This document shows positions 1,448 to 40,489 of a stretch of 64,000 nucleotides of DNA, piece after piece (position 1 is the first letter of the stretch; each line of letters opens with the position of its first letter). The position numbers and the translations under genes were made by a program. The notes under the pieces were generated by a model. That model was not told the origin of the DNA. It saw nothing but the letters and a program-made list of their open reading frames with translations, and ran no database searches. This DNA comes from a virus, in IMG/VR virus record IMGVR_UViG_3300047546_001881, positions 1-64,000 of that record. The stretch is one strand, 5' to 3'.

Positions 1448-1723
1448 ATGTCTTATATGAATCAAACTTTTCGCAAATTTGGAGATTATCCATTTAATGA
1501 AGAAGGAATCCTCACAGCCGAGGCGTCGTATCAGAACGGTTACGACACAGGACTCACCTGGAAAGAGTCCTACACTCCAGGCGGCCCCATGGTGTACGGC
1601 CCAGGAATGAAAAAGGACAAAGATTGGATCGCCTATTGTGCCGCGTTAATAGAAAACCACAATAAGTGGCACGATGGATTCCAAGATGGACGTGCCGCAG
1701 CAGTAAAGAAACTTGCACTGTAA
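1448..1723 (+). CDS. hypothetical protein
   Basis: 91-aa ATG ORF. Confidence 0.55.
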   Translation: MSYMNQTFRKFGDYPFNEEGILTAEASYQNGYDTGLTWKESYTPGGPMVYGPGMKKDKDWIAYCAALIENHNKWHDGFQDGRAAAVKKLAL

Positions 1724-1789
1724 ACAGAAGTACTAGCCGCTACTATCATAAAACTCAAAACAGCTACTAACATTATTACAAGAAGAAAA

Positions 1790-1966
1790 ATGGCTCGATT
1801 AAATAAATTACTTGGCAAGCTACCAAAAAAATTTCACTGGTCACTTCACAATTTAGTAGCACATCCTTTATCAGAAATTGTTTATTTAATAGGTTGCGAA
1901 AATCTCTCTAATACAATTCACGATGCAACAATTCCTGAGCATCTTCCAGGTACAGGAAGAGGGTAA
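1790..1966 (+). CDS. small hypothetical phage protein (58 aa, not in ORF track)
   Basis: Hand translation: MARLNKLLGKLPKKFHWSLHNLVAHPLSEIVYLIGCENLSNTIHDATIPEHLPGTGRG*; followed by a terminator-like hairpin. Confidence 0.6.
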   Translation: MARLNKLLGKLPKKFHWSLHNLVAHPLSEIVYLIGCENLSNTIHDATIPEHLPGTGRG

Positions 1967-2001
1967 GTAATCTTGTTTGTAAAATGAACAAGATTACTTT
2001 C
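1965..2001 (+). terminator. intrinsic terminator-like hairpin
   Basis: AAGTAATCTTGTTT / GAACAAGATTACTT inverted repeat right after a stop codon. Confidence 0.55.
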
Positions 2002-2035
2002 TTACCTACTAACAAATAATCTTAGGAGATATCAA

Positions 2036-2242
2036 ATGCGTAATCTTGAATATTATGGTAATGTTGTAACAAATGCATTTATAGTATTTGGTTTCGTACT
2101 AGCTCCAATAATTTTTATTATGTGGATGGCTTATCTCGCTGCTGGATCTTTGGGACTTGTTGCAGCATCTTTTTTGATGCTTGTTAGTTTTGTCATTGGT
2201 ATCTCTATGGAGAATGAACGTAGAGGTAAGCATGACAAATAG
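2036..2242 (+). CDS. small membrane protein
   Basis: AGGAG RBS, two hydrophobic segments. Confidence 0.6.
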   Translation: MRNLEYYGNVVTNAFIVFGFVLAPIIFIMWMAYLAAGSLGLVAASFLMLVSFVIGISMENERRGKHDK

Positions 2243-2477
2243 AAGAGTTACACGTTGTCTTACTTGGGGCGAAGAAAAAGCTACTGGTTTTCCATTACTT
2301 GATAATCAAGGAAAACGTATTGGATTCATTGATTTGAGAGAATGGGTAACTCTCTGTGGAGCCTCTGATAAAGATCCAAAAGAAGCTTGCGGAATAGATG
2401 TCACCAGACTTAGACCAAAAGGTATTTGTCCAAAATGTTGGTCCGTCTACAAACTTCAAATAATGAGCCTCACATGA
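2232..2477 (+). CDS. small Cys-rich (Zn-binding?) protein
   Basis: Likely start MTNRRVT at 2232 (GAGGT RBS); CG...CPKC motif; stop overlaps ATG 2474. Confidence 0.5.
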   Translation: MTNRRVTRCLTWGEEKATGFPLLDNQGKRIGFIDLREWVTLCGASDKDPKEACGIDVTRLRPKGICPKCWSVYKLQIMSLT

Positions 2478-2650
2478 CTAACAGAATAACTTTCCTCACT
2501 GACGAGACAAACCACCGCGTCTTCCGGGGTGGTAGCTGGAGCAACGTCCCGCAGCTCGCGCGGGTCGCCAACCGCAGCTACTTCACCCCCGACTTCCGCA
2601 ACTTCATCCTCGGCGTTCGGCTTGTGGAAGAAATCGAGGACACAAAATGA
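2474..2650 (+). CDS. CLec/FGE-sulfatase C-terminal (VR-like) mini-protein 1
   Basis: MTNRITFLTDETNHRVFRGGSWSNVPQLARVANRSYFTPDFRNFILGVRLVEEIEDTK. Confidence 0.8.
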   Translation: MTNRITFLTDETNHRVFRGGSWSNVPQLARVANRSYFTPDFRNFILGVRLVEEIEDTK

Positions 2651-2793
2651 CTAACAAAGAAATTTACTACTCTTACAGAGGTGGTGGCTGGTTCTTTGCA
2701 CCAGTGTTTGCGCAGATCGTAAGCCACAGCGTAAATTCTTCTAATGGTACTAGCTACTTCCTTGGCCTTCGACTCATTGAGATTGAGGAGTAA
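2647..2793 (+). CDS. VR-like mini-protein 2
   Basis: MTNKEIYYSYRGGGWFFAPVFAQIVSHSVNSSNGTSYFLGLRLIEIEE; ATGA overlap with unit 1. Confidence 0.75.
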   Translation: MTNKEIYYSYRGGGWFFAPVFAQIVSHSVNSSNGTSYFLGLRLIEIEE

Positions 2794-2795
2794 AA

Positions 2796-2939
2796 ATGAC
2801 TGATAAGAACACTGTCTATCTCAATCGGGGCAGTACTTGGTACATCACTACAATGTGTGCGCAGATCGCTATCCGCTTTTACGACACCCCTGACTTCCAC
2901 GATTACTATCTTGGCCTTCGACTTATTGAAATTGTTTAG
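2796..2939 (+). CDS. VR-like mini-protein 3
   Basis: MTDKNTVYLNRGSTWYITTMCAQIAIRFYDTPDFHDYYLGLRLIEIV; GAGGAG RBS. Confidence 0.75.
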   Translation: MTDKNTVYLNRGSTWYITTMCAQIAIRFYDTPDFHDYYLGLRLIEIV

Positions 2940-2947
2940 GAATAAGA

Positions 2948-3094
2948 ATGACTAAAGAAACAAACCACCGTGTCCTCCGAGGTGGCAGCTGGGGTCTTGG
3001 CGCGCAGTACACTCAGATTGTCGATCGTTATAGCAGCACCTCCAATTTTCGGTTCAGTCGCCTCGGGTTTCGACTTATTGAAGTTAAGGAGTAA
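2948..3094 (+). CDS. VR-like mini-protein 4
   Basis: MTKETNHRVLRGGSWGLGAQYTQIVDRYSSTSNFRFSRLGFRLIEVKE; AGGA RBS. Confidence 0.8.
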   Translation: MTKETNHRVLRGGSWGLGAQYTQIVDRYSSTSNFRFSRLGFRLIEVKE

Positions 3095-3096
3095 AG

Positions 3097-3264
3097 ATGA
3101 CTAACAGAACAAAACGCCGCCTCTGCCGGGACTGCGGTTGGCTCTTCCACCCGCAGTCCGCGCAGGTCGCCATCCGCTACTTCATCACCCCCGTCTACCG
3201 CGACTACCGCGACGACCTCCTCGGTGTTCGACTAGTTGAGGTTATTGAAGAAGTTAATGTCTAA
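3097..3264 (+). CDS. VR-like mini-protein 5
   Basis: MTNRTKRRLCRDCGWLFHPQSAQVAIRYFITPVYRDYRDDLLGVRLVEVIEEVNV; AAGGAG RBS. Confidence 0.75.
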   Translation: MTNRTKRRLCRDCGWLFHPQSAQVAIRYFITPVYRDYRDDLLGVRLVEVIEEVNV

Positions 3265-3400
3265 AAAGAAAATCTATCGTATTTACCGAGGCGGAAGCTG
3301 GAATATTGATTCGCAAATTGCGCAAGTTGTTCTTCGTGACTTCAGTACTATTCGTTACCACTACAGCAGTCTTGGAATTAGACTTGTAGAAGTTATATAA
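3257..3400 (+). CDS. VR-like mini-protein 6
   Basis: MSKKKIYRIYRGGSWNIDSQIAQVVLRDFSTIRYHYSSLGIRLVEVI. Confidence 0.75.
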   Translation: MSKKKIYRIYRGGSWNIDSQIAQVVLRDFSTIRYHYSSLGIRLVEVI

Positions 3401-3461
3401 AATCCTCCACTTGATTAGTTTAACTAATATTCATTAACTATAATTACTAAACAAGTTTAAC

Positions 3462-3776
3462 TTGTATGGAGAAAATATGAATGGATTGATTAAAACTACT
3501 GGAGCAGGTCAACCAGAACATACAAAGACTGTTAGAGAGATTGTAGAGTCACAATCTCTTAGTACTAAAATTAAAGAAGATATTCTAGCAAGACTAGATA
3601 CTGGCGAACACAAATATGGCCATAAACTAAAAATGAATTGGCCCAAAGCAAAACAAGAGCTATATCAAGAATTGCTAGATGCATATGTTTATGCTTTAAG
3701 TGCTGAACTGTTTGAGGTTGCTGAAAAGATTATTGACTTGATTAGTATCCTATTCTTAGGAGAGGAAAATGCTTGA
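3462..3776 (+). CDS. MazG-like all-alpha NTP pyrophosphatase family protein (putative)
   Basis: R...G..KYG...QELYQELLDAYVY pattern. Confidence 0.45.
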   Translation: MYGENMNGLIKTTGAGQPEHTKTVREIVESQSLSTKIKEDILARLDTGEHKYGHKLKMNWPKAKQELYQELLDAYVYALSAELFEVAEKIIDLISILFLGEENA

Positions 3777-3993
3777 AGAAATCTTACAATGTAAAGAGTA
3801 CGTAAACTGGATCATTGCCTATGTAGGCTTTCTCCTACTAGCTGTAGTTTCTGGTATGGGGTGGGCGTTATCTACTCCTATAGAAATCTTTGTTGCAGTA
3901 AATCTTGCATTCTTGTTCATTACATTTGGTATTCAATCTTATTGCTGGAAGCTTTCAAATAAAATATTTGCTTCTTGCAAAATTAATGATTGA
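3769..3993 (+). CDS. small membrane protein
   Basis: two hydrophobic helices, GGAGAGG RBS. Confidence 0.5.
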   Translation: MLEEILQCKEYVNWIIAYVGFLLLAVVSGMGWALSTPIEIFVAVNLAFLFITFGIQSYCWKLSNKIFASCKIND

Positions 3994-4090
3994 AAACCTA
4001 TCACCTAGCTTGTATGCATTAATAGGAACATTGATAGTATTTACTCCTGTAATTATATCAATAGTGATTTTGCTACTTGCTAGGTGATTT

Positions 4091-4561
4091 ATGAACTATA
4101 TATTTACAAGTTACAATGGCGGCTTTAAAGCCGCCGCTTCACTTTGTGAAGATGAAACTTTTCGTTCTAAAGTATTAAGTGCTTCTGTTTTGCTTTCTCC
4201 TTTAGAAACAAAAAAACATATAGCTCATGCAGTAACAATAGAGAATCGCCCTTCTATTGGTTTTACTTTTGAGTTTACTACTGCTCTTGCTTTGGCTGCT
4301 TATCTGAAATCAGCGTATACTTACGAGCCATCAGAAATAATCTCTATAGGCTGTTCTACTCGTAATCATCTTCGTCATAAAACAAAAGATGAGCCTTACG
4401 CTTTAATCTCTGTATTACATTTAAACAAAGGCAAAAACCTTTTCTACAATTTTAGAATGTTTGCTAACGAAAAACCAGAAGATACTTTGGCTAAACTAAT
4501 TGTTGATTTAGCTAATATGATTCAATATGGATCTTATCCAAAACAATTACAGGAAATATAA
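4091..4561 (+). CDS. hypothetical protein
   Basis: 156-aa ORF, AGGTG RBS. Confidence 0.55.
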   Translation: MNYIFTSYNGGFKAAASLCEDETFRSKVLSASVLLSPLETKKHIAHAVTIENRPSIGFTFEFTTALALAAYLKSAYTYEPSEIISIGCSTRNHLRHKTKDEPYALISVLHLNKGKNLFYNFRMFANEKPEDTLAKLIVDLANMIQYGSYPKQLQEI

Positions 4562-6150: not shown

Positions 6151-7149
6151 ATGTCTATTGAATATGCCGATATAGTTTTTGGCTTAGCCTGGGGCGACGA
6201 AGGCAAAGGCAAAGTAATATCTAAACTATCTAACAACTACGATATCGTAGCAAGGTGGGCTGGCGGTGCAAACGCCGGACATACCATTTACCTAAATGGT
6301 AAACGCTATAAGTCTCATATTATACCAAGTGGAGTCTTTACAGATAGTTTATCTTTTATTGGACCTGGATGCGTTGTAAATGAAAGCTCTTTCTTAGAAG
6401 AGATTTCGTATTTAAAAGAGAATGGATTTGACACTTCTCTTGTAAAGATATCTCCCAAAGCTTTCCTTGTACAAGAAGAGAACCTGATTCAAGATTCTCA
6501 AAACAATATTATTGGCACAACCAATAAAGGTATTGGCCCTACCTATACTGATAAAGTAGCAAGAAGAGGTAAGCGAGTCATTGATAGCGAAAAGCTATTC
6601 CCTTATATTGAAGATGTAACTCTTCGTGGAAGGATACTCTGTGAAGGCGCACAAGGCTTTTGGTTGGATCTTGATTGGGGTAACTATCCATACGTCACCT
6701 CAAGTACAACGCTGCCTTATGGGGCTTGCAGCCTTGGCATATCGCCCAAAAAGATAAGAGACATCATAGGCGTTGCTAAGCTTTATGATACTAGGGTTGG
6801 TCTTGATCCAGACTTCCCTGCTAGCTTAAACCAAGATCCGGAACTTTCTTTAATCCAAACTCTTGGAGAAGAGTTTGGAACTACCACTGGTAGAAAAAGA
6901 ACAGTAAACTGGTTAAACCTTGATAAGCTAATACAGGCAATCAATATATCAGGCGCTACAACTATTATCATTAACAAGTGCGATATTATTGAGAAAGCTA
7001 AGTTATTTAAGTTTTATTATTCAGGTCATCTTCAAGAGTATGACAATCTCTTCATGATGATTGATGCAATTAGAGATATACTTCTCTTTCGCTGTTTATC
7101 ACTGAAGAAAGAACTTATTTACTTCTCTTTCTCTAACTCTTCTATTTAG
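6151..7149 (+). CDS. purA: adenylosuccinate synthetase (short form)
   Basis: WGDEGKGK, GGANAGHT, GTTNKGIGP, EGAQG, YPYVTSS, EFGTTTGRKR, NKCD motifs. Confidence 0.95.
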   Translation: MSIEYADIVFGLAWGDEGKGKVISKLSNNYDIVARWAGGANAGHTIYLNGKRYKSHIIPSGVFTDSLSFIGPGCVVNESSFLEEISYLKENGFDTSLVKISPKAFLVQEENLIQDSQNNIIGTTNKGIGPTYTDKVARRGKRVIDSEKLFPYIEDVTLRGRILCEGAQGFWLDLDWGNYPYVTSSTTLPYGACSLGISPKKIRDIIGVAKLYDTRVGLDPDFPASLNQDPELSLIQTLGEEFGTTTGRKRTVNWLNLDKLIQAINISGATTIIINKCDIIEKAKLFKFYYSGHLQEYDNLFMMIDAIRDILLFRCLSLKKELIYFSFSNSSI

Positions 7150-7156
7150 TAGTTCA

Positions 7157-7185
7157 GTGGCTTTCGCCACGCTGTTTGGTGGTTG
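7157..7185. promoter_or_regulatory. recurrent hairpin motif (GC stem-TTTC-stem + TGTTTGG), copy 1
   Basis: GTGGC TTTC GCCAC GCTGTTTGGTGG; similar copies at 11863, 11918 and 20984. Confidence 0.6.
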
Positions 7186-7208
7186 TTATTACAACCACTG
7201 GACTAAAA

Positions 7209-8258
7209 ATGGAGCTTCTAGATATCAAAAAGATTTACTTGCAAGAGTCTTGTGAATCTCAAGAAAGAACACAGCAAATCTTACAAAGATTTCCTACTGC
7301 AGAAAAAATCTTAGTAAAGAATCATTGGAAAATTCCAGAGCTTCAAGACGAAAGTCTAATTGAAAGCTGGAATCTGGTAAAGAAAAATATTTTAGTAATA
7401 GGTAATATAAAAAGCTTTACTTCTACTTCTAATGGAAGAAGTACAGATTTTATAGCTCCTAGTCACTCAAATGGTTGCGCTCTATCTTGTGCTTATTGCT
7501 ATGTTGGAAGACGTAAAGGTGCTTCTAATCCAATTACAGTCTTCTCTAATATAGAAGATATAATCAAAGCAATAGATAAGCATGCTTCCGTTTTACCTGA
7601 TAAGACACCTAATCAATGTGATCCAGTTTATTGGACCTATGATATAGGCTGTAACAATGATGCTTCAGTAGATGATTTAGTTTCTGATAATGTAAAAGAT
7701 CTAATTGATTACTTTGCTGATTCAAAAAATATCAAAGCTTCATTTGCTACCAAGTTTGTAAATAACAAATTACTAAACTACAATCCTAAAAATAAAACTC
7801 GCATTAGATTCTCTCTAATGCCTGAAAACGTAAGAAAAGTAGTAGATGTAAGAACATCTACTACAACTCAAAAAATCAAAGCCATTAACGATTTTCATGA
7901 AGCAGGCTATGAAGTTCATTTAAACTTCTCTCCAGTTATTCTTACTGAAACTTGGGAAGAAGATTACGCTGAACTATTTGAGGAAATATTTGACAATGTT
8001 TCAGGTTCTGCCTATACGAATCTAAAACATGAAGTTATATTTCTAACTCATAACGAAGCTTTACATGATCTCAACTTAAAATGGCACCCAAAAGCAGAAG
8101 ACTTACTTTGGCGTCCTGATATACAAGAACCTAAGTTTAGTTTAAACGGCGCCAAAAACATTAGATATAGTAATGCTTACAGATACAGTTCTATTTATAT
8201 CTTTAAAACTCTTATAAATAGATACCTTCCTTTCACTCCAATCAGATATATATTTTAA
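7209..8258 (+). CDS. spore photoproduct lyase-family radical SAM protein
   Basis: CALSCAYC (CxxxCxxC), YDIGCNND, FATK, RIRFSLMP, GYEVHLNFSPVI motifs. Confidence 0.85.
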   Translation: MELLDIKKIYLQESCESQERTQQILQRFPTAEKILVKNHWKIPELQDESLIESWNLVKKNILVIGNIKSFTSTSNGRSTDFIAPSHSNGCALSCAYCYVGRRKGASNPITVFSNIEDIIKAIDKHASVLPDKTPNQCDPVYWTYDIGCNNDASVDDLVSDNVKDLIDYFADSKNIKASFATKFVNNKLLNYNPKNKTRIRFSLMPENVRKVVDVRTSTTTQKIKAINDFHEAGYEVHLNFSPVILTETWEEDYAELFEEIFDNVSGSAYTNLKHEVIFLTHNEALHDLNLKWHPKAEDLLWRPDIQEPKFSLNGAKNIRYSNAYRYSSIYIFKTLINRYLPFTPIRYIF

Positions 8259-35798: not shown

Positions 35799-37067
35799 AT
35801 GACAACGAACCCCTTTGTCCATTTACATCTCCATACTGAATACTCACTCTTAGATGGTATAAATAGAATAAATTACTTGCCTAAATATATTAAAAGTATT
35901 GGTCAAGAAGCAGTTGCCATGACAGATCATGGCAACGTTTCTGGTAGCTACTCTTTCTACAAGCAATGCAAGAAAGATGGCGTCAAACCAATCATAGGAA
36001 TGGAATCTTACTATACTGTACAAGATAGATCTGTTAAAGAAGTAGATGACTTAGGTGAGTCTTATTATCATCTTGTTTTGATTGCTCTTAATAACACTGG
36101 TCTTAAAAATCTATTTAAGCTTTCTTCTTTAGCTTACACTGAAGGTATGTATAGAAAGCCAAGAATAGATGATGCTCTGCTTGGCGACTTATCTGAAGGT
36201 CTCTGTGCGACTTCCTCTTGCCTAGGAAGTCGCGCTTCACAACTTATCCTAAATGGTAAAGCGTCAGAAGCTGAGAAGCTAATTCATCATCATGCAGCTT
36301 TATTTAATAAGAAGTTCTTAATTGAACTGCAGCTACATGAGATGGAAGATCAAAAGAAAGTTAATCAAGTACTATTAGATATAGCTAACAGAAATAACTA
36401 TCCAATCATTCTAACGAATGATTGTCACTACACTCATCCAGTAGATAAAGCTTTACATGAGATTGCTTTGTGTATGCAAACCAAAAGTACTCTTTCTGAT
36501 GAAAAGAGATTTACATTTGGAGATATAGACGTACACGTAGCAAGCCATGACTGGATGTGGCAAAGAGCTCAAGAAGCAGGAATACCTTACGATGCAATAA
36601 GTAACACTGCTGCTTTAGCAAATATGGTTAATAGTAAAGATTATTTCTCTGATAGAAAGAATAGATATCCTCAATTCAAAGACCTATATGAAGGCATGAA
36701 TAGTTCTGAACATTTAGAAATATTAGCTAAACAAAAGCTATATGAAAGGTTTGGTACTATGCCTCCCAAAGAGTACAGAGAAAGACTAGATTATGAGTTA
36801 AAAGTAATTAAGAAGATAGGCTTCTCTGATTATATGCTGATTGTTTGGGAATTTCTAAAAGGTGCAAGAGACTCTGGTGTAGAAGTTGGTCCAGGAAGAG
36901 GTAGTAGTGGCGGAAGCTTAGTAGCTTACGCCTTAGAAATAACTAACTTTGATCCAATTAAATACGGACTAGTGTTTGAGAGATTCCTGAATATCGGAAG
37001 AGCTGCTCAACCACTAATCTTTAATGATGAAATGTATGCTCAAGTAGAAGCTAATCTTAAAGACTAA
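35799..37067 (+). CDS. dnaE: DNA polymerase III alpha, N-terminal part (PHP + palm start)
   Basis: HLHLHTEYSLLDG, TDHG, TNDCHY, GPGRGS, FERFLN then stop. Confidence 0.92.
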   Translation: MTTNPFVHLHLHTEYSLLDGINRINYLPKYIKSIGQEAVAMTDHGNVSGSYSFYKQCKKDGVKPIIGMESYYTVQDRSVKEVDDLGESYYHLVLIALNNTGLKNLFKLSSLAYTEGMYRKPRIDDALLGDLSEGLCATSSCLGSRASQLILNGKASEAEKLIHHHAALFNKKFLIELQLHEMEDQKKVNQVLLDIANRNNYPIILTNDCHYTHPVDKALHEIALCMQTKSTLSDEKRFTFGDIDVHVASHDWMWQRAQEAGIPYDAISNTAALANMVNSKDYFSDRKNRYPQFKDLYEGMNSSEHLEILAKQKLYERFGTMPPKEYRERLDYELKVIKKIGFSDYMLIVWEFLKGARDSGVEVGPGRGSSGGSLVAYALEITNFDPIKYGLVFERFLNIGRAAQPLIFNDEMYAQVEANLKD

Positions 37068-38053
37068 GGTATTGGTTTAAAACCCAATACTAGATAAAAG
37101 CCTGAACCATTCATTCCTACGTTATTAGATGCAAGTGTTATCTTCCAGGTATTATTTGTAAGATACTGCTTGGAAGATAATACTGCACTAAGAGGAATAT
37201 TGGTAACGGTGTTAGCAGTTAAACTGTTCATATCAAAAGCTACAGGTAAGCTACTTACTCCAGCAGCTACATTTTGAATATCTAGCTGTAAGCTACCAAC
37301 AGTATTTACTACATCACAGTATATACCTGCAGAGACAAGTTCTGTTTTGAAAGGATACCAACCTATATATTCTATTGTAATTCCTGGTGCTTCTGGTAAT
37401 TCTATTCTTTCAACATTAACTGTCCAATTTTTAGTATCAGCCATTGTTGATACTAAAGTATCTAATGACTCTACAGATGGTAAATTAGATGCATTGCCTA
37501 TAAAGATGTTACCTTTATTAAGATTAGGTACATCATTAGTACGACCGGCGCCACCAATTTTGATAGAACCATTACTTGCATGAACCCTTTGTACTTTAGC
37601 TAAGTTTTGTACAAGAGAAGATTCACCAGCTGGCTTACTTGTCTGTAAGCCAGATGCACCTACATATAAACTATTATTTAAAGCCCATCCAGGAGTACTT
37701 GTATCAATATTATGTAGTGTTCCAAAAGTAACTACTTCTACATTGCTACCTAAACTAGCAGAGTTTCCGGCTACACCAAATGCAGGCATCTTAGCTGCGT
37801 TAGTACAATCAGCCTTACTTACAACAGGTTTACTTCCACTTACACCTGAAATGTAAACTGGATCTCCAAGTACAAGTGCTTCACCTGCATTAGCATTAAA
37901 GACAATTCTTTGTGCTTCTTCAGAAGCAATTACTGTACCGAAACTAAAGTTACCTGCTCCATCTGTAAGCAGAACTTCATCTGCAGCACCATCTGTTATT
38001 CCTAAATCAGTTAAAGTTCTAGGTATAAACTTACCATTCTCAATAATACTCAT
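37064..38053 (-). CDS. putative virion fibre/decoration protein inserted between the dnaE halves
   Basis: VLLTDGAGNFSF, AGEALVLGDPVYISG, LYVGASG, RTNDVPNL motifs of phage fibre/cement-like proteins; ATG at 38053 with AAGGTG RBS. Confidence 0.65.
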   Translation of the reverse strand: MSIIENGKFIPRTLTDLGITDGAADEVLLTDGAGNFSFGTVIASEEAQRIVFNANAGEALVLGDPVYISGVSGSKPVVSKADCTNAAKMPAFGVAGNSASLGSNVEVVTFGTLHNIDTSTPGWALNNSLYVGASGLQTSKPAGESSLVQNLAKVQRVHASNGSIKIGGAGRTNDVPNLNKGNIFIGNASNLPSVESLDTLVSTMADTKNWTVNVERIELPEAPGITIEYIGWYPFKTELVSAGIYCDVVNTVGSLQLDIQNVAAGVSSLPVAFDMNSLTANTVTNIPLSAVLSSKQYLTNNTWKITLASNNVGMNGSGFYLVLGFKPIP

Positions 38054-38074
38054 AACAACACCTTGGAATTTAAT

Positions 38075-40489
38075 ATGGAAGATATTAAAGCTTTCTATAT
38101 ACCTGAAAGATACAAACAAGTAGATGTAGACTTTCTTGAATTTGAAGAAGATATGATATCTTCTAAAGATAAAAGCATTATACTATCATTACTTAACAAG
38201 AGTTCAACTGGATTATCTAAAATGGATAATCCATATAATAGTATAATTTTATATCTTACTGGTCTTACAGATCAGTTCAATTTTGTTCAAGGAAGATCTG
38301 ATACTATCGGAGGCAGCCCTCCAGATGTTGATATAGATTTCGATGCATTAGAAAGAGAGAAAGCAATAGAGTGGGTCGTGCAAAAATGGGGACGAACTCA
38401 AGTTGCTAACATTATCACTCATGGTACTTTTAAGCCTAAGTCTTTAGTTAAGTCCTACTACAGAGTAACTGAAGGCTCTTCAAAAGATATGGGGGATCTT
38501 CTTAAAATGATCCCCCCAGCTAAGTTTGGTAAAGAATCTACAATTGAAGAGATTGTAACCAAAGAGCCAGAGTTTAAAAACTTCGAACCTTTTTATTCTT
38601 CTGCTACTAAGCTAGAAGATATGATTTCGAACTTTGGTATACATGCAGCAGGTATTGTCATCTCCGACTTCCCCATTTACGATGTAGTTCCTGTATGGAA
38701 GAATAGTAAAGCTGATTTCATCACTCAGTTTGACAAGAAGGAAGTAGAAGATTTAGGTCTTATTAAGTTTGACTTCTTATCTATTGATACCTTGTCGATT
38801 ATCAAAGAGTGCATAAGACTTATAAAAGAGAAAAGAAACCTTACAATTAATCCATGGCAGCTACCTGATGGAGATCCCAAAGCATATGCCGCTATGAATA
38901 GCGGCTACTTGACTGGATTGTTTCAAGTAGAAACTTCAGGTAAAGCAAAAGATCTAATACAGAGAATCAAGCCTCAAAGCATTCCTCATATTAGTGATAT
39001 CAGTGCACTGAATAGACCTGGACCAGCTCAAGCTGGTCTTGATGAACAATACATTACTAATAAGAACAATAACTGTCCACCTGAAGAACTTCCGAAAGTT
39101 GTTGCTGACTTACTTAAAGATACTTATTGGACTCTTGTTTATCAAGAACAAGTTATGGAGATCTTTTCTAAGTTAGCTGGCTTTACAATGAAAGAGTCAG
39201 ATGATATTCGAAGAGCAATGGGCAAGAAAGACAAAGATGTTCTATCTGCTTATGAAGAACAATTCATTCAAGGCTCTATTAAATTATCTGGACTAAAACA
39301 AGATTATGCTAAAACTCTTTGGGAAGAACTACTAGGTTTCGCAGACTATTGTTTTAATAAGAGTCATAGCGTAGCTTACTCAATAATCACTTATGCAACA
39401 GCATATTTGAAAGCGAACTATTCTACTGAATTCTTTTGTGCGCTAATGACTGTTAGATCCCAATCTTTACAACCTAAAGATTGGGCTTGCAAAGCTCCAG
39501 AATACATTAATGAAGCAAAGTACTTTGACGTAGAAATAAATCCACCATCAGTTAATGGCTCTGACTTAGAGTTTTCAATGAAAGATGGAGAGATTTATTT
39601 TGGTCTTAATGCAATTAGAGATGTAGGTGGTACTGCCGCCAAATCTATTGTAAAGACAAGAGGCCGGACTCCTTATAAAGATATCTTCGATTTCTTATTT
39701 AGAGTTAACGGAAACAAAGTAACAATTAAAACTTTTGTTAGCTTAATTAAATCTGGCGCTTTTGACAAAATGGGTTACATTAGAAGTGAACTCGTACTAA
39801 AGTCTCAATTACTTTATGATTACGTTAGAGATATACAAGAATATAATCTTAGATTAACTGAAATAAAAGAACGAGATGCTTATAACGAACAAGCAAATGC
39901 ATTGATTGAAAAAAGAGATAATCTAAGAAAAGAAGTAAAAGCAATAGAAAAGGAAATCAAGAAGTCTGGTACTACAGTTGCTTTGTCTGCAAGGTTTGAA
40001 GAAGCATCTTCTCAATTGACAGAAATAGAAGAGATGCAAATTAAAAGACTTCCAGCTCTTAAGATAAAAGAAGAACCAGTTAAACCAGAACTAGTTAGAA
40101 CTAAAAGTGTTCCTTTAGATTTGTCACAAATAATGGAGCAAGCTCATTATATTGGCTGTTATATTGGATCACATCCAGCAGCTATGATAGGCTCCGGTTA
40201 TGACAAGATAGAAGATTGTTATATTGGTCAAAGGCCAAGTCTTTGCGGTATTGTAAATAGCATTAAAGTAATCTCTACCAAGTCAGGACAGAAGATGGCC
40301 TTCTTGGAAATAGACGATTCTACTGCAACTGCTGAACTTACAATATTTGCAAGTCTCTGGACTAAACTATCTGCCTTGAATATTGTTCCTGGATGTTTGA
40401 TTTCTGATATTGAGTGCAAGGTGGAAAACGAAGACCCAATAAAACTTGTAGCTTTCAATTTAAAATTAGTTAGGAGCCCTAATGAGTAA
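38075..40489 (+). CDS. dnaE: DNA polymerase III alpha, C-terminal part (catalytic palm, fingers, OB)
   Basis: PDVDIDF, HAAG, GLIKFDFL, LVYQEQ, RRAMGKK, YCFNKSH, OB fold with GQKMAF. Confidence 0.92.
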   Translation: MEDIKAFYIPERYKQVDVDFLEFEEDMISSKDKSIILSLLNKSSTGLSKMDNPYNSIILYLTGLTDQFNFVQGRSDTIGGSPPDVDIDFDALEREKAIEWVVQKWGRTQVANIITHGTFKPKSLVKSYYRVTEGSSKDMGDLLKMIPPAKFGKESTIEEIVTKEPEFKNFEPFYSSATKLEDMISNFGIHAAGIVISDFPIYDVVPVWKNSKADFITQFDKKEVEDLGLIKFDFLSIDTLSIIKECIRLIKEKRNLTINPWQLPDGDPKAYAAMNSGYLTGLFQVETSGKAKDLIQRIKPQSIPHISDISALNRPGPAQAGLDEQYITNKNNNCPPEELPKVVADLLKDTYWTLVYQEQVMEIFSKLAGFTMKESDDIRRAMGKKDKDVLSAYEEQFIQGSIKLSGLKQDYAKTLWEELLGFADYCFNKSHSVAYSIITYATAYLKANYSTEFFCALMTVRSQSLQPKDWACKAPEYINEAKYFDVEINPPSVNGSDLEFSMKDGEIYFGLNAIRDVGGTAAKSIVKTRGRTPYKDIFDFLFRVNGNKVTIKTFVSLIKSGAFDKMGYIRSELVLKSQLLYDYVRDIQEYNLRLTEIKERDAYNEQANALIEKRDNLRKEVKAIEKEIKKSGTTVALSARFEEASSQLTEIEEMQIKRLPALKIKEEPVKPELVRTKSVPLDLSQIMEQAHYIGCYIGSHPAAMIGSGYDKIEDCYIGQRPSLCGIVNSIKVISTKSGQKMAFLEIDDSTATAELTIFASLWTKLSALNIVPGCLISDIECKVENEDPIKLVAFNLKLVRSPNE

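Follow-up and report, generated by a model that had tools for sequence, protein, structure and literature searches.

Diversity-generating retroelements (DGRs) are, to our knowledge, the only system of templated, targeted hypermutation in prokaryotes, and we know of descriptions of their targets only as full ligand-binding domains that carry a variable region (VR) at the tip. In FGE-type C-type-lectin targets the VR is carried by the C-terminal part of the domain, and DGR-rewritten tracts end at a fixed 3′ boundary, the 5′ boundary being variable (PMC5758913). A template repeat (TR) and a reverse transcriptase (RT) were identified in 372 catalogued DGRs, the avd-TR-brt cassette is active in trans, and examples are on record of targets that are small (44 aa), that stand in tandem, that carry the VR at the N-terminus or that are not adjacent (PMC5758913). 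Remote targets number seven in Treponema and lie within ∼50 kb in phage-associated cases, and a Stenotrophomonas sp. has eight targets in tandem (PMC5758913). Phage DGRs feature a hairpin or cruciform immediately 3′ of the VR, and the initiation of mutagenic homing (IMH) element together with the hairpin is sufficient to target a gene (PMC3240598). The DNA considered here is the first 64 kb (the window) of the IMG/VR virus record IMGVR_UViG_3300047546_001881, which is linear, 75,716 nt long, 36% GC and estimated to be ∼50% complete. It contains six head-to-tail mini-genes at 2474-3400, of which the first and fifth (units 1 and 5) are judged quite likely to carry two live VRs of a DGR.

The open reading frame (ORF) listing of the window gives the mini-genes as 58, 48, 47, 48, 55 and 47 codons, over an extent slightly wider than the 2510-3240 assigned to the repeats in a preliminary description of this DNA. 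That description had reported an adenine-mutagenesis fingerprint in which NNC codons change at positions 1 and 2 and keep C at position 3, and the codon strings it quoted for units 1 and 5 are exactly those of the sequence. Alignment of the two units from W22 to L46 of unit 1 (TGG...CTC) gives 25 codons, 14 of which differ, in every case at codon positions 1-2 and never at position 3, and the variable codons all end in C; the remaining 11 codons are identical at all three positions. In the flank 3′ of these cores (GVRLVE...), by comparison, position 3 is altered in 11 of 12 codons (GGC/GGT, CGG/CGA, CTT/CTA, GTG/GTT), a difference in third-position changes between core and flank that is highly significant (Fisher p = 1.4e-8). 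The cores, which are ∼100 nt long, have a GC content of 68-69% and a third-position GC content (GC3) of 0.94 in a 36% GC phage. The VR of unit 1 occupies the 68% GC core at 2516-2613 (+), with variable sites seen at 2522-2598, and that of unit 5 lies at 3139-3224 (+), the latest rewritten tract in the lineage of the window. Frozen cores beside synonymously saturated 3′ flanks indicate that units 1 and 5 are old paralogues, both cores of which have recently been overwritten from one template. The preliminary description had extended the pattern to all six units; it stands for units 1 and 5, whereas in units 2, 3, 4, and 6 the differences from unit 1 extend to all three codon positions, with scaffold nucleotide identities of 58-75% and GC3 of 0.36-0.61. 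From their composition, these four look like older copies of unlike age that have drifted toward AT and no longer vary.

Variation in natural populations falls on the same two cores. Thirteen studies, with 20 public runs between them, contain the stretch 2200-3700; most of these runs are metagenomes from fresh water and rivers. Of 21 listed runs, 18 contained half or more of the words sampled from the 1.5-kb query stretch. Contigs, rather than reads, from four runs were placed on positions 1500-4500. In the probable source run, a Logan contig of 88.7 kb covers the start of the window, and contigs of other metagenomes, from runs X3 and X5, give independent support. In the contig from run X3, covering 1500-4300, 28 of 33 substitutions fall within the 8% of the length that the two cores occupy (binomial p = 2e-26), and 17 of them are within the unit 1 VR. 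The changes (for example TTC→CGC, AGC→CTC, AAC→TTC, and GTC→GAC) affect positions 1-2 of the same NNC codons. Outside the cores this contig differs from the window at five of ∼2580 positions (∼99.8% identity), compared with a divergence of more than 10% in the cores. In the contig from run X5 (2933-3804), all 21 substitutions are in the unit 5 core. Units 2, 3, 4, and 6 together accumulated three substitutions across the population contigs. By these data the two cores are hypervariable between populations. Database proteins with invariant flanks and variable cores provide further alleles, P0002, P0003, and P0004 for unit 1 and P0164, P0165, and P0166 for unit 5, so that at least four unit 1 alleles and at least five unit 5 alleles are found on near-identical backbones. 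Backbones ∼99.8% identical around cores more than 10% different place the rewriting within this phage lineage and not before the units were acquired, which contradicts the earlier suggestion that mutagenesis might have preceded their capture. That no unit is itself the TR, as had also been proposed, agrees with these data; unit 1 and unit 5 were both tried as candidates and ruled out because both vary among samples, and unit 1 retains only three AAC codons.

The rewritten tracts also share their geometry. The 3′ boundary follows CTC GG in both units and is the same in all contigs compared; the IMH-like tract CTCGGCGTTCGGCT begins at this point and is conserved across the family of VRs built on the same nucleotide scaffold. 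The 5′ boundary slides: in unit 5, the rewritten tract starts at 3114 in run X5, where it brings back AAC CAC together with the GGC GGC AGC that is canonical for the RGGSW motif, and only at the TGG at 3139 in the window. VR length is polymorphic as well. A 9-nt tandem duplication inside the unit 5 VR at 3195-3217 (+) (CTACCGCGA, 2.6 copies) is removed by a 9-nt deletion in run X5 and is absent from allele P0164, and a further 3-nt insertion is found near it in run X3.

The base composition of the variable sites is that expected of adenine-directed mutagenesis. A scan of metagenome contigs with a 27-nt DNA pattern of the scaffold returned 38 loci, ∼14 of which are genuine FGE-type VRs. Comparison of 16 distinct alleles of the scaffold gives 33 variable positions, 30 of which are first or second positions of codons. 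Each of the four bases is represented at these sites, with A the plurality base at 18 of the 33, and A makes up 36.6% of the bases at variable sites but 1.9% at conserved sites. Sites rich in A when variable and poor in A elsewhere are what unmutated template adenines in an otherwise A-free scaffold would leave behind. A ∼19-fold enrichment of A at variable sites, together with the restriction of variation to the first two positions of NNC codons and a scaffold that is invariant down to its synonymous sites, upholds the DGR-type fingerprint of the preliminary description. The AAC-rich TR that it had reconstructed is plausible, since a genuine TR of a different but related DGR of 68% GC (L010, at 2168) has AAC at the homologous codons, but the true TR extends further 5′ than was reconstructed. 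Codon 17, the AGC of GGSW, the A of both CAG codons, and ACC also vary among the alleles, which gives the template mutable adenines at these places too and carries it beyond the proposed 5′ end.

These features bear on the simplest alternative, that no retroelement is involved and that the variation arose by ordinary point mutation, with diversifying selection and with gene conversion among the paralogous genes. The units are tandem paralogues that recombine, and positive selection is common at binding surfaces. Selection on the protein, however, would not freeze the synonymous sites of the interspersed codons, and the alternative is at odds with the lack of any third-position change in 25 core codons beside a saturated flank, with variable codons that all end in C, with the occurrence of four bases and an A plurality at variable sites, and with hypervariable tracts that have sharp, common boundaries. 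The alternative is therefore considered extremely improbable.

The nucleotide scaffold shared by these VRs is conserved even at synonymous sites: over 54 positions that the search pattern does not cover, contigs ranging from 36 to 71% GC show 83-96% identity. Conservation over such a GC range suggests either a strong nucleotide constraint on the template or horizontal spread, and the donor DGR may work across genomes. The remaining protein sequence of the scaffold-sharing contigs (loci L003-L038) is unrelated. One of them (L007:1-2066, 71% GC) encodes tandem full-length FGE-type target paralogues ending in ...LGVRLLRTAP, in each of which the VR is built on the scaffold of units 1 and 5.

It is proposed that a donor TR of ∼100-125 nt, GC-rich and with ∼15 AAC codons and a few single adenines, would be transcribed and reverse transcribed unfaithfully at adenines. 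The cDNA would then replace the VR from the fixed 3′ end, after ...CTC GG at the start of the IMH-like tract, to a 5′ end that depends on the event. The targets would be separately translated, translationally coupled mini-genes that correspond to the C-terminal, VR-bearing module of the FGE-type C-type-lectin fold, and units 2, 3, 4, and 6 would no longer be rewritten, having drifted to the AT-rich composition of the phage. The data show directly the mutational fingerprint, the hypervariability between populations, both boundaries, the homology of the module, and the lack of a TR and of an RVT_1-type match in the record. For retrohoming into units 1 and 5, the RT-mediated transfer, the sequence of the TR, and the location of the donor are all what we infer from the products. 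Membership of the two units among DGR targets is supported by five tested features and stands unproven for the two defining ones, TR and RT.

Several results weigh against such a mechanism. No match to PF00078 (RVT_1) at E ≤ 1 occurs in the 75,716-nt record, itself only ∼50% complete, and no TR-like copy was found in the record outside the array by blastn-short, by an IUPAC pattern allowing three mismatches, or by a masked scaffold scan of both strands. IMG/VR lacks both the 27-nt scaffold and the TR-specific pattern; species genomes in GTDB gave chance matches only, in GC-rich genomes; and the metagenome pattern scan returned many VRs of the scaffold but no TR for it. A weaker point of the same kind is that the probable source run contains no TR-like contig aligning to the cores at ≥80% likeness, the sensitivity of the aligner being unknown. 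Folding of the 85-nt DNA 3′ of the VRs revealed no convincing hairpin (z = -0.62 for unit 1 and +0.97 for unit 5). Finally, the contig from run X4, obtained in another study in 2018, is identical in both cores to the window, which derives from a 2025 sample, indicating that rewriting is not constant and that alleles can persist. Outside the array, the masked scan of the record reached no more than 41 of 85 scaffold positions at any site, the mean of the background being 17. IMG/VR searches with unit 1, with the invariant 35-nt junction, and with a permuted FGE protein (described below), alone or as an alignment, were all empty, and a protein-guided scan of metagenomes confirmed nothing. The preliminary description had proposed to look for a TR homologue in the contig and in other genomes and for an adjacent RT; no RT was found in the record, and no TR in the record, IMG/VR, the GTDB species genomes, or the metagenome scan. 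A GC-rich patch at 1500-1700 was considered as the TR and rejected for want of similarity.

With neither TR nor RT found and with cores shared between 2018 and 2025, it could be argued that the cores are relics of a DGR lost from the lineage and that recombination among old polymorphisms accounts for the present alleles. Recombination between units 1 and 5 is indeed seen: P0004/P0163 is a chimera of the 5′ part of unit 1 and the 3′ part of unit 5 with units 2-4 deleted, and is represented by five contigs, the longest of 16.3 kb. Units 2, 3, 4, and 6 show, moreover, that units can fossilize. Relics of this kind are nevertheless hard to reconcile with the five non-core differences of run X3 beside cores more than 10% divergent, with the number of alleles of both units on near-identical backbones, or with the absence of AT drift from cores of GC3 0.94, and the loss of the DGR is regarded as improbable.

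A second alternative accepts rewriting by a DGR but places the donor outside the phage, in the host or in a co-infecting phage, whose DGR would rewrite the units in trans during infection through the same conserved template and IMH-like end. The absence of TR and RT from 75.7 kb, the lack of a TR-like contig in the probable source run, the foreign composition of the cores (68-69% versus 36% GC), and the recurrence of the same nucleotide scaffold in unrelated contigs of 54-71% GC, at 83-96% identity over the 54 positions, are all consistent with it, and DGR parts have been shown experimentally to act in trans (PMC5758913). The record, on the other hand, represents about half of a genome, so that a non-adjacent cassette in cis is the simpler explanation; described phage-associated DGRs keep their targets within ∼50 kb in the same element (PMC5758913); and the scaffold occurs in no bacterial species genome of GTDB. 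A donor outside the phage is thus thought unlikely, if less so than loss of the DGR. For units 1 and 5 as live DGR targets, the RT, accessory gene, and TR are most likely to lie in the unsampled half of the same ∼150-kb genome, in a non-adjacent target arrangement.

The mini-genes have the appearance of an operon. All six start with ATG, and in units 1 and 2 the ATG overlaps the preceding stop codon (ATGA), which for unit 1 is that of the upstream ORF; Shine-Dalgarno sequences precede units 3 (GAGGAG) and 5 (AAGGAG) within the acidic tail of the preceding unit. Unit 1 (2474-2650, +) encodes 58 aa and matches the Pfam FGE-sulfatase profile over positions 210-254 of 255 only. Unit 2 (2647-2793, +; 48 aa) is an old AT-drifted copy that is invariant among samples (GC3 0.48, two substitutions in run X3), and unit 3 (2796-2939, +; 47 aa), whose GAGGAG lies in the tail of unit 2, is likewise an old copy (GC3 0.61, one X3 substitution). 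Unit 4 (2948-3094, +; 48 aa) is of intermediate age, its scaffold being 75% identical to that of unit 1, with no X3 substitution. Unit 5 (3097-3264, +; 55 aa) is the unit to which alleles P0164, P0165, and P0166 belong. Unit 6 (3257-3400, +; 47 aa), which overlaps the end of unit 5 by 8 nt, is the most AT-drifted (GC3 0.36) and has no X3 substitution. The residues R..W ... LG.RL.E are kept in all six units although the codons for them are unlike, which argues for translation of the units and for purifying selection, and by the persistence of this motif units 2, 3, 4, and 6 are probably still translated.

Three of the six units match the Pfam FGE-sulfatase family (PF03781) at E ≤ 1, unit 1 with 24.7 bits against a cut-off of 23.3, and the matches are confined to profile positions 208-254 of 255, which are the last ∼45 residues of the domain. 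The N-terminal part of the FGE domain was found nowhere in the record by Pfam, tblastn, or phmmer, and, among longer proteins, a word-based search detected none that was a close extended form of unit 1. Comparison of a profile built from 17 units with 1.84 billion representative proteins gave 6,942 matches at E ≤ 1e-3. Approximately 90 of the best 150 are unit-only proteins, as read from the length column and in a summed-score ranking that favors multi-unit proteins. Proteins of one unit are 47-67 aa, of two units 85-115 aa, and of three to four units 143-188 aa, and up to nine units occur; the units are joined by acidic linkers, and Pfam returns repeated matches to positions ∼200-254 only. 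The units belong to a large, apparently undescribed family of proteins that consist of the VR module only. A related contig (L028:1-3650; Ga0172372_10057717) appears to be composed almost wholly of tandem mini-units ending in ...RLVRRC, eight as listed and approximately twenty by reading of the ORF list. At least its first junction has an ATGA stop/start overlap and a GGAGGTG Shine-Dalgarno sequence inside tail codons, and the GC-rich scaffold is present in its first two units only.

Other, phage-like loci (L015/L023/L038 and L019/L027) encode in-frame fusions in which one unit precedes an FGE scaffold (Pfam positions 59-121) that lacks the C-terminus. The order of parts in these unit-first fusions is that of a circular permutation, with a VR module, the FGE N-terminal part, and a coiled-coil tail (L023:6062-6784; L015:1217-1948; L019:542-1225; L027:944-1627, - strand). 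Their N-terminal VR is hypervariable, with L015, L023, and L038 differing at NNC codons only. The homologous array in L023 adjoins genes for dUTPase and the ribonucleotide reductase small subunit. In P0041, three units stand ahead of a truncated FGE scaffold, and in P0011 a full domain is followed by approximately nine units.

Structure prediction gave little for the isolated module. AlphaFold2 did not fold a two-unit protein with confidence (55 sequences; predicted local distance difference test score, pLDDT, 53.5), the model of the permuted protein (4 sequences; pLDDT 46) was too poor for a fold search, and the ESM Atlas holds only small clusters of the FGE type, with a disordered model of pLDDT 0.27. 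The poor folds of lone units would fit a module that needs a partner. On the strength of the Rosetta-stone fusions, namely the permuted proteins, P0041, P0011, and the proteins of two to nine units, we propose that the mini-proteins might be interchangeable tips that supply the C-terminal VR module in trans to an FGE/C-type-lectin scaffold without a C-terminus; this remains a speculative and rather doubtful suggestion.

The array is flanked by small ORFs, followed by PurA/PurZ-like, spore-photoproduct-lyase-like, ribonucleotide reductase, split DNA polymerase, and primase-helicase genes. By these annotations, the array is placed in a replication/auxiliary region, away from tail genes. The small ORFs beside it obtained no function from Pfam or PHROGs. 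The adenylosuccinate-synthetase-like gene (6151-7146, +) matches phrog_1211 (E = 2.7e-70), annotated as the PurZ type of 2-aminoadenine (Z-genome) phages. It has 433 relatives in IMG/VR with identities of up to 59%, and 80 loci around such homologues contained no mini-gene. If the gene is PurZ, a Z-genome in a DGR-targeted phage would be of interest. The spore-photoproduct-lyase-like radical-SAM gene lies at 7176-8255 (+; PF20903, E = 4.7e-34). The DNA polymerase (phrog_405) is divided between ORFs at 35799-37064 (+; profile positions 40-443) and 38063-40486 (+; profile positions 441-1049), and the 351-codon ORF on the opposite strand between the halves (37064-38119, -) may be an inserted mobile gene.

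What is rewritten in this array is a ∼50-codon gene that stands on its own and shares an operon with five others in a widespread freshwater phage. Targets of this kind escape searches that start from the RT, and the example illustrates that the footprint of a DGR can be recognized and dated from the VRs alone. If the units were indeed tips, one scaffold and an operon of diversified and archived tips would constitute a set of combinatorial binders, expressed from an early/auxiliary region and directed, for example, against host defense or surface components. This raises the questions of how a module without a confident fold of its own could act as a binder, and of whether phages archive past variants beside live ones. 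Literature searches brought up neither an operon of genes for the VR module alone nor the family of unit-only proteins.

Tandem partial copies of a variable part and recombination between copies are characteristic of silent-cassette antigenic variation, as in Neisseria pilS and Borrelia vlsE. The array resembles these cassettes in both respects, the recombination being represented by the P0004 chimera. In contrast to silent cassettes, the units have start codons, Shine-Dalgarno sequences, and conserved motifs and look expressed, and templated mutagenesis would contribute to their diversity as well.

The DGR of Bordetella phage BPP-1 (PMC3240598) is likewise phage-borne and combines adenine-specific rewriting of a C-type-lectin-fold tip with cDNA integration at a fixed 3′ end. 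Its target, Mtd, is a tail-fibre protein encoded in the structural module with TR and RT adjacent, whereas the array here lies among small early-type genes next to those for nucleotide metabolism; and while BPP-1 relies on recognition of the IMH and a hairpin or cruciform, no hairpin is detectable 3′ of the VRs in this array. The DGRs with remote or tandem targets (PMC5758913) are similar in having several targets for one template, not located beside the RT, and in the arrangement of targets as a tandem array. Their targets are full domains, however, and in the present case the donor would lie beyond the ends of the 75.7-kb record and two of the six units are live. Resemblance extends to the sequence in the case of the CLec1/FGE-sulfatase targets (category 'b' of Wu et al. 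2018, PMC5758913), for which TvpA of Treponema denticola is the prototype and which have the same VR motif, RV.RGGSW ... R ... LG[FV]RL. As in those proteins, the VR is at the extreme C-terminus of the FGE match, diversification affects AAC-type codons, and the 3′ boundary is fixed and the 5′ one variable. The mini-genes differ from them in that only the last ∼45 residues of the domain are present, the 200-residue N-terminal scaffold being absent from the record and neither TR nor RT being nearby, and in that the module is distributed over six tandem genes, each with a start codon of its own.

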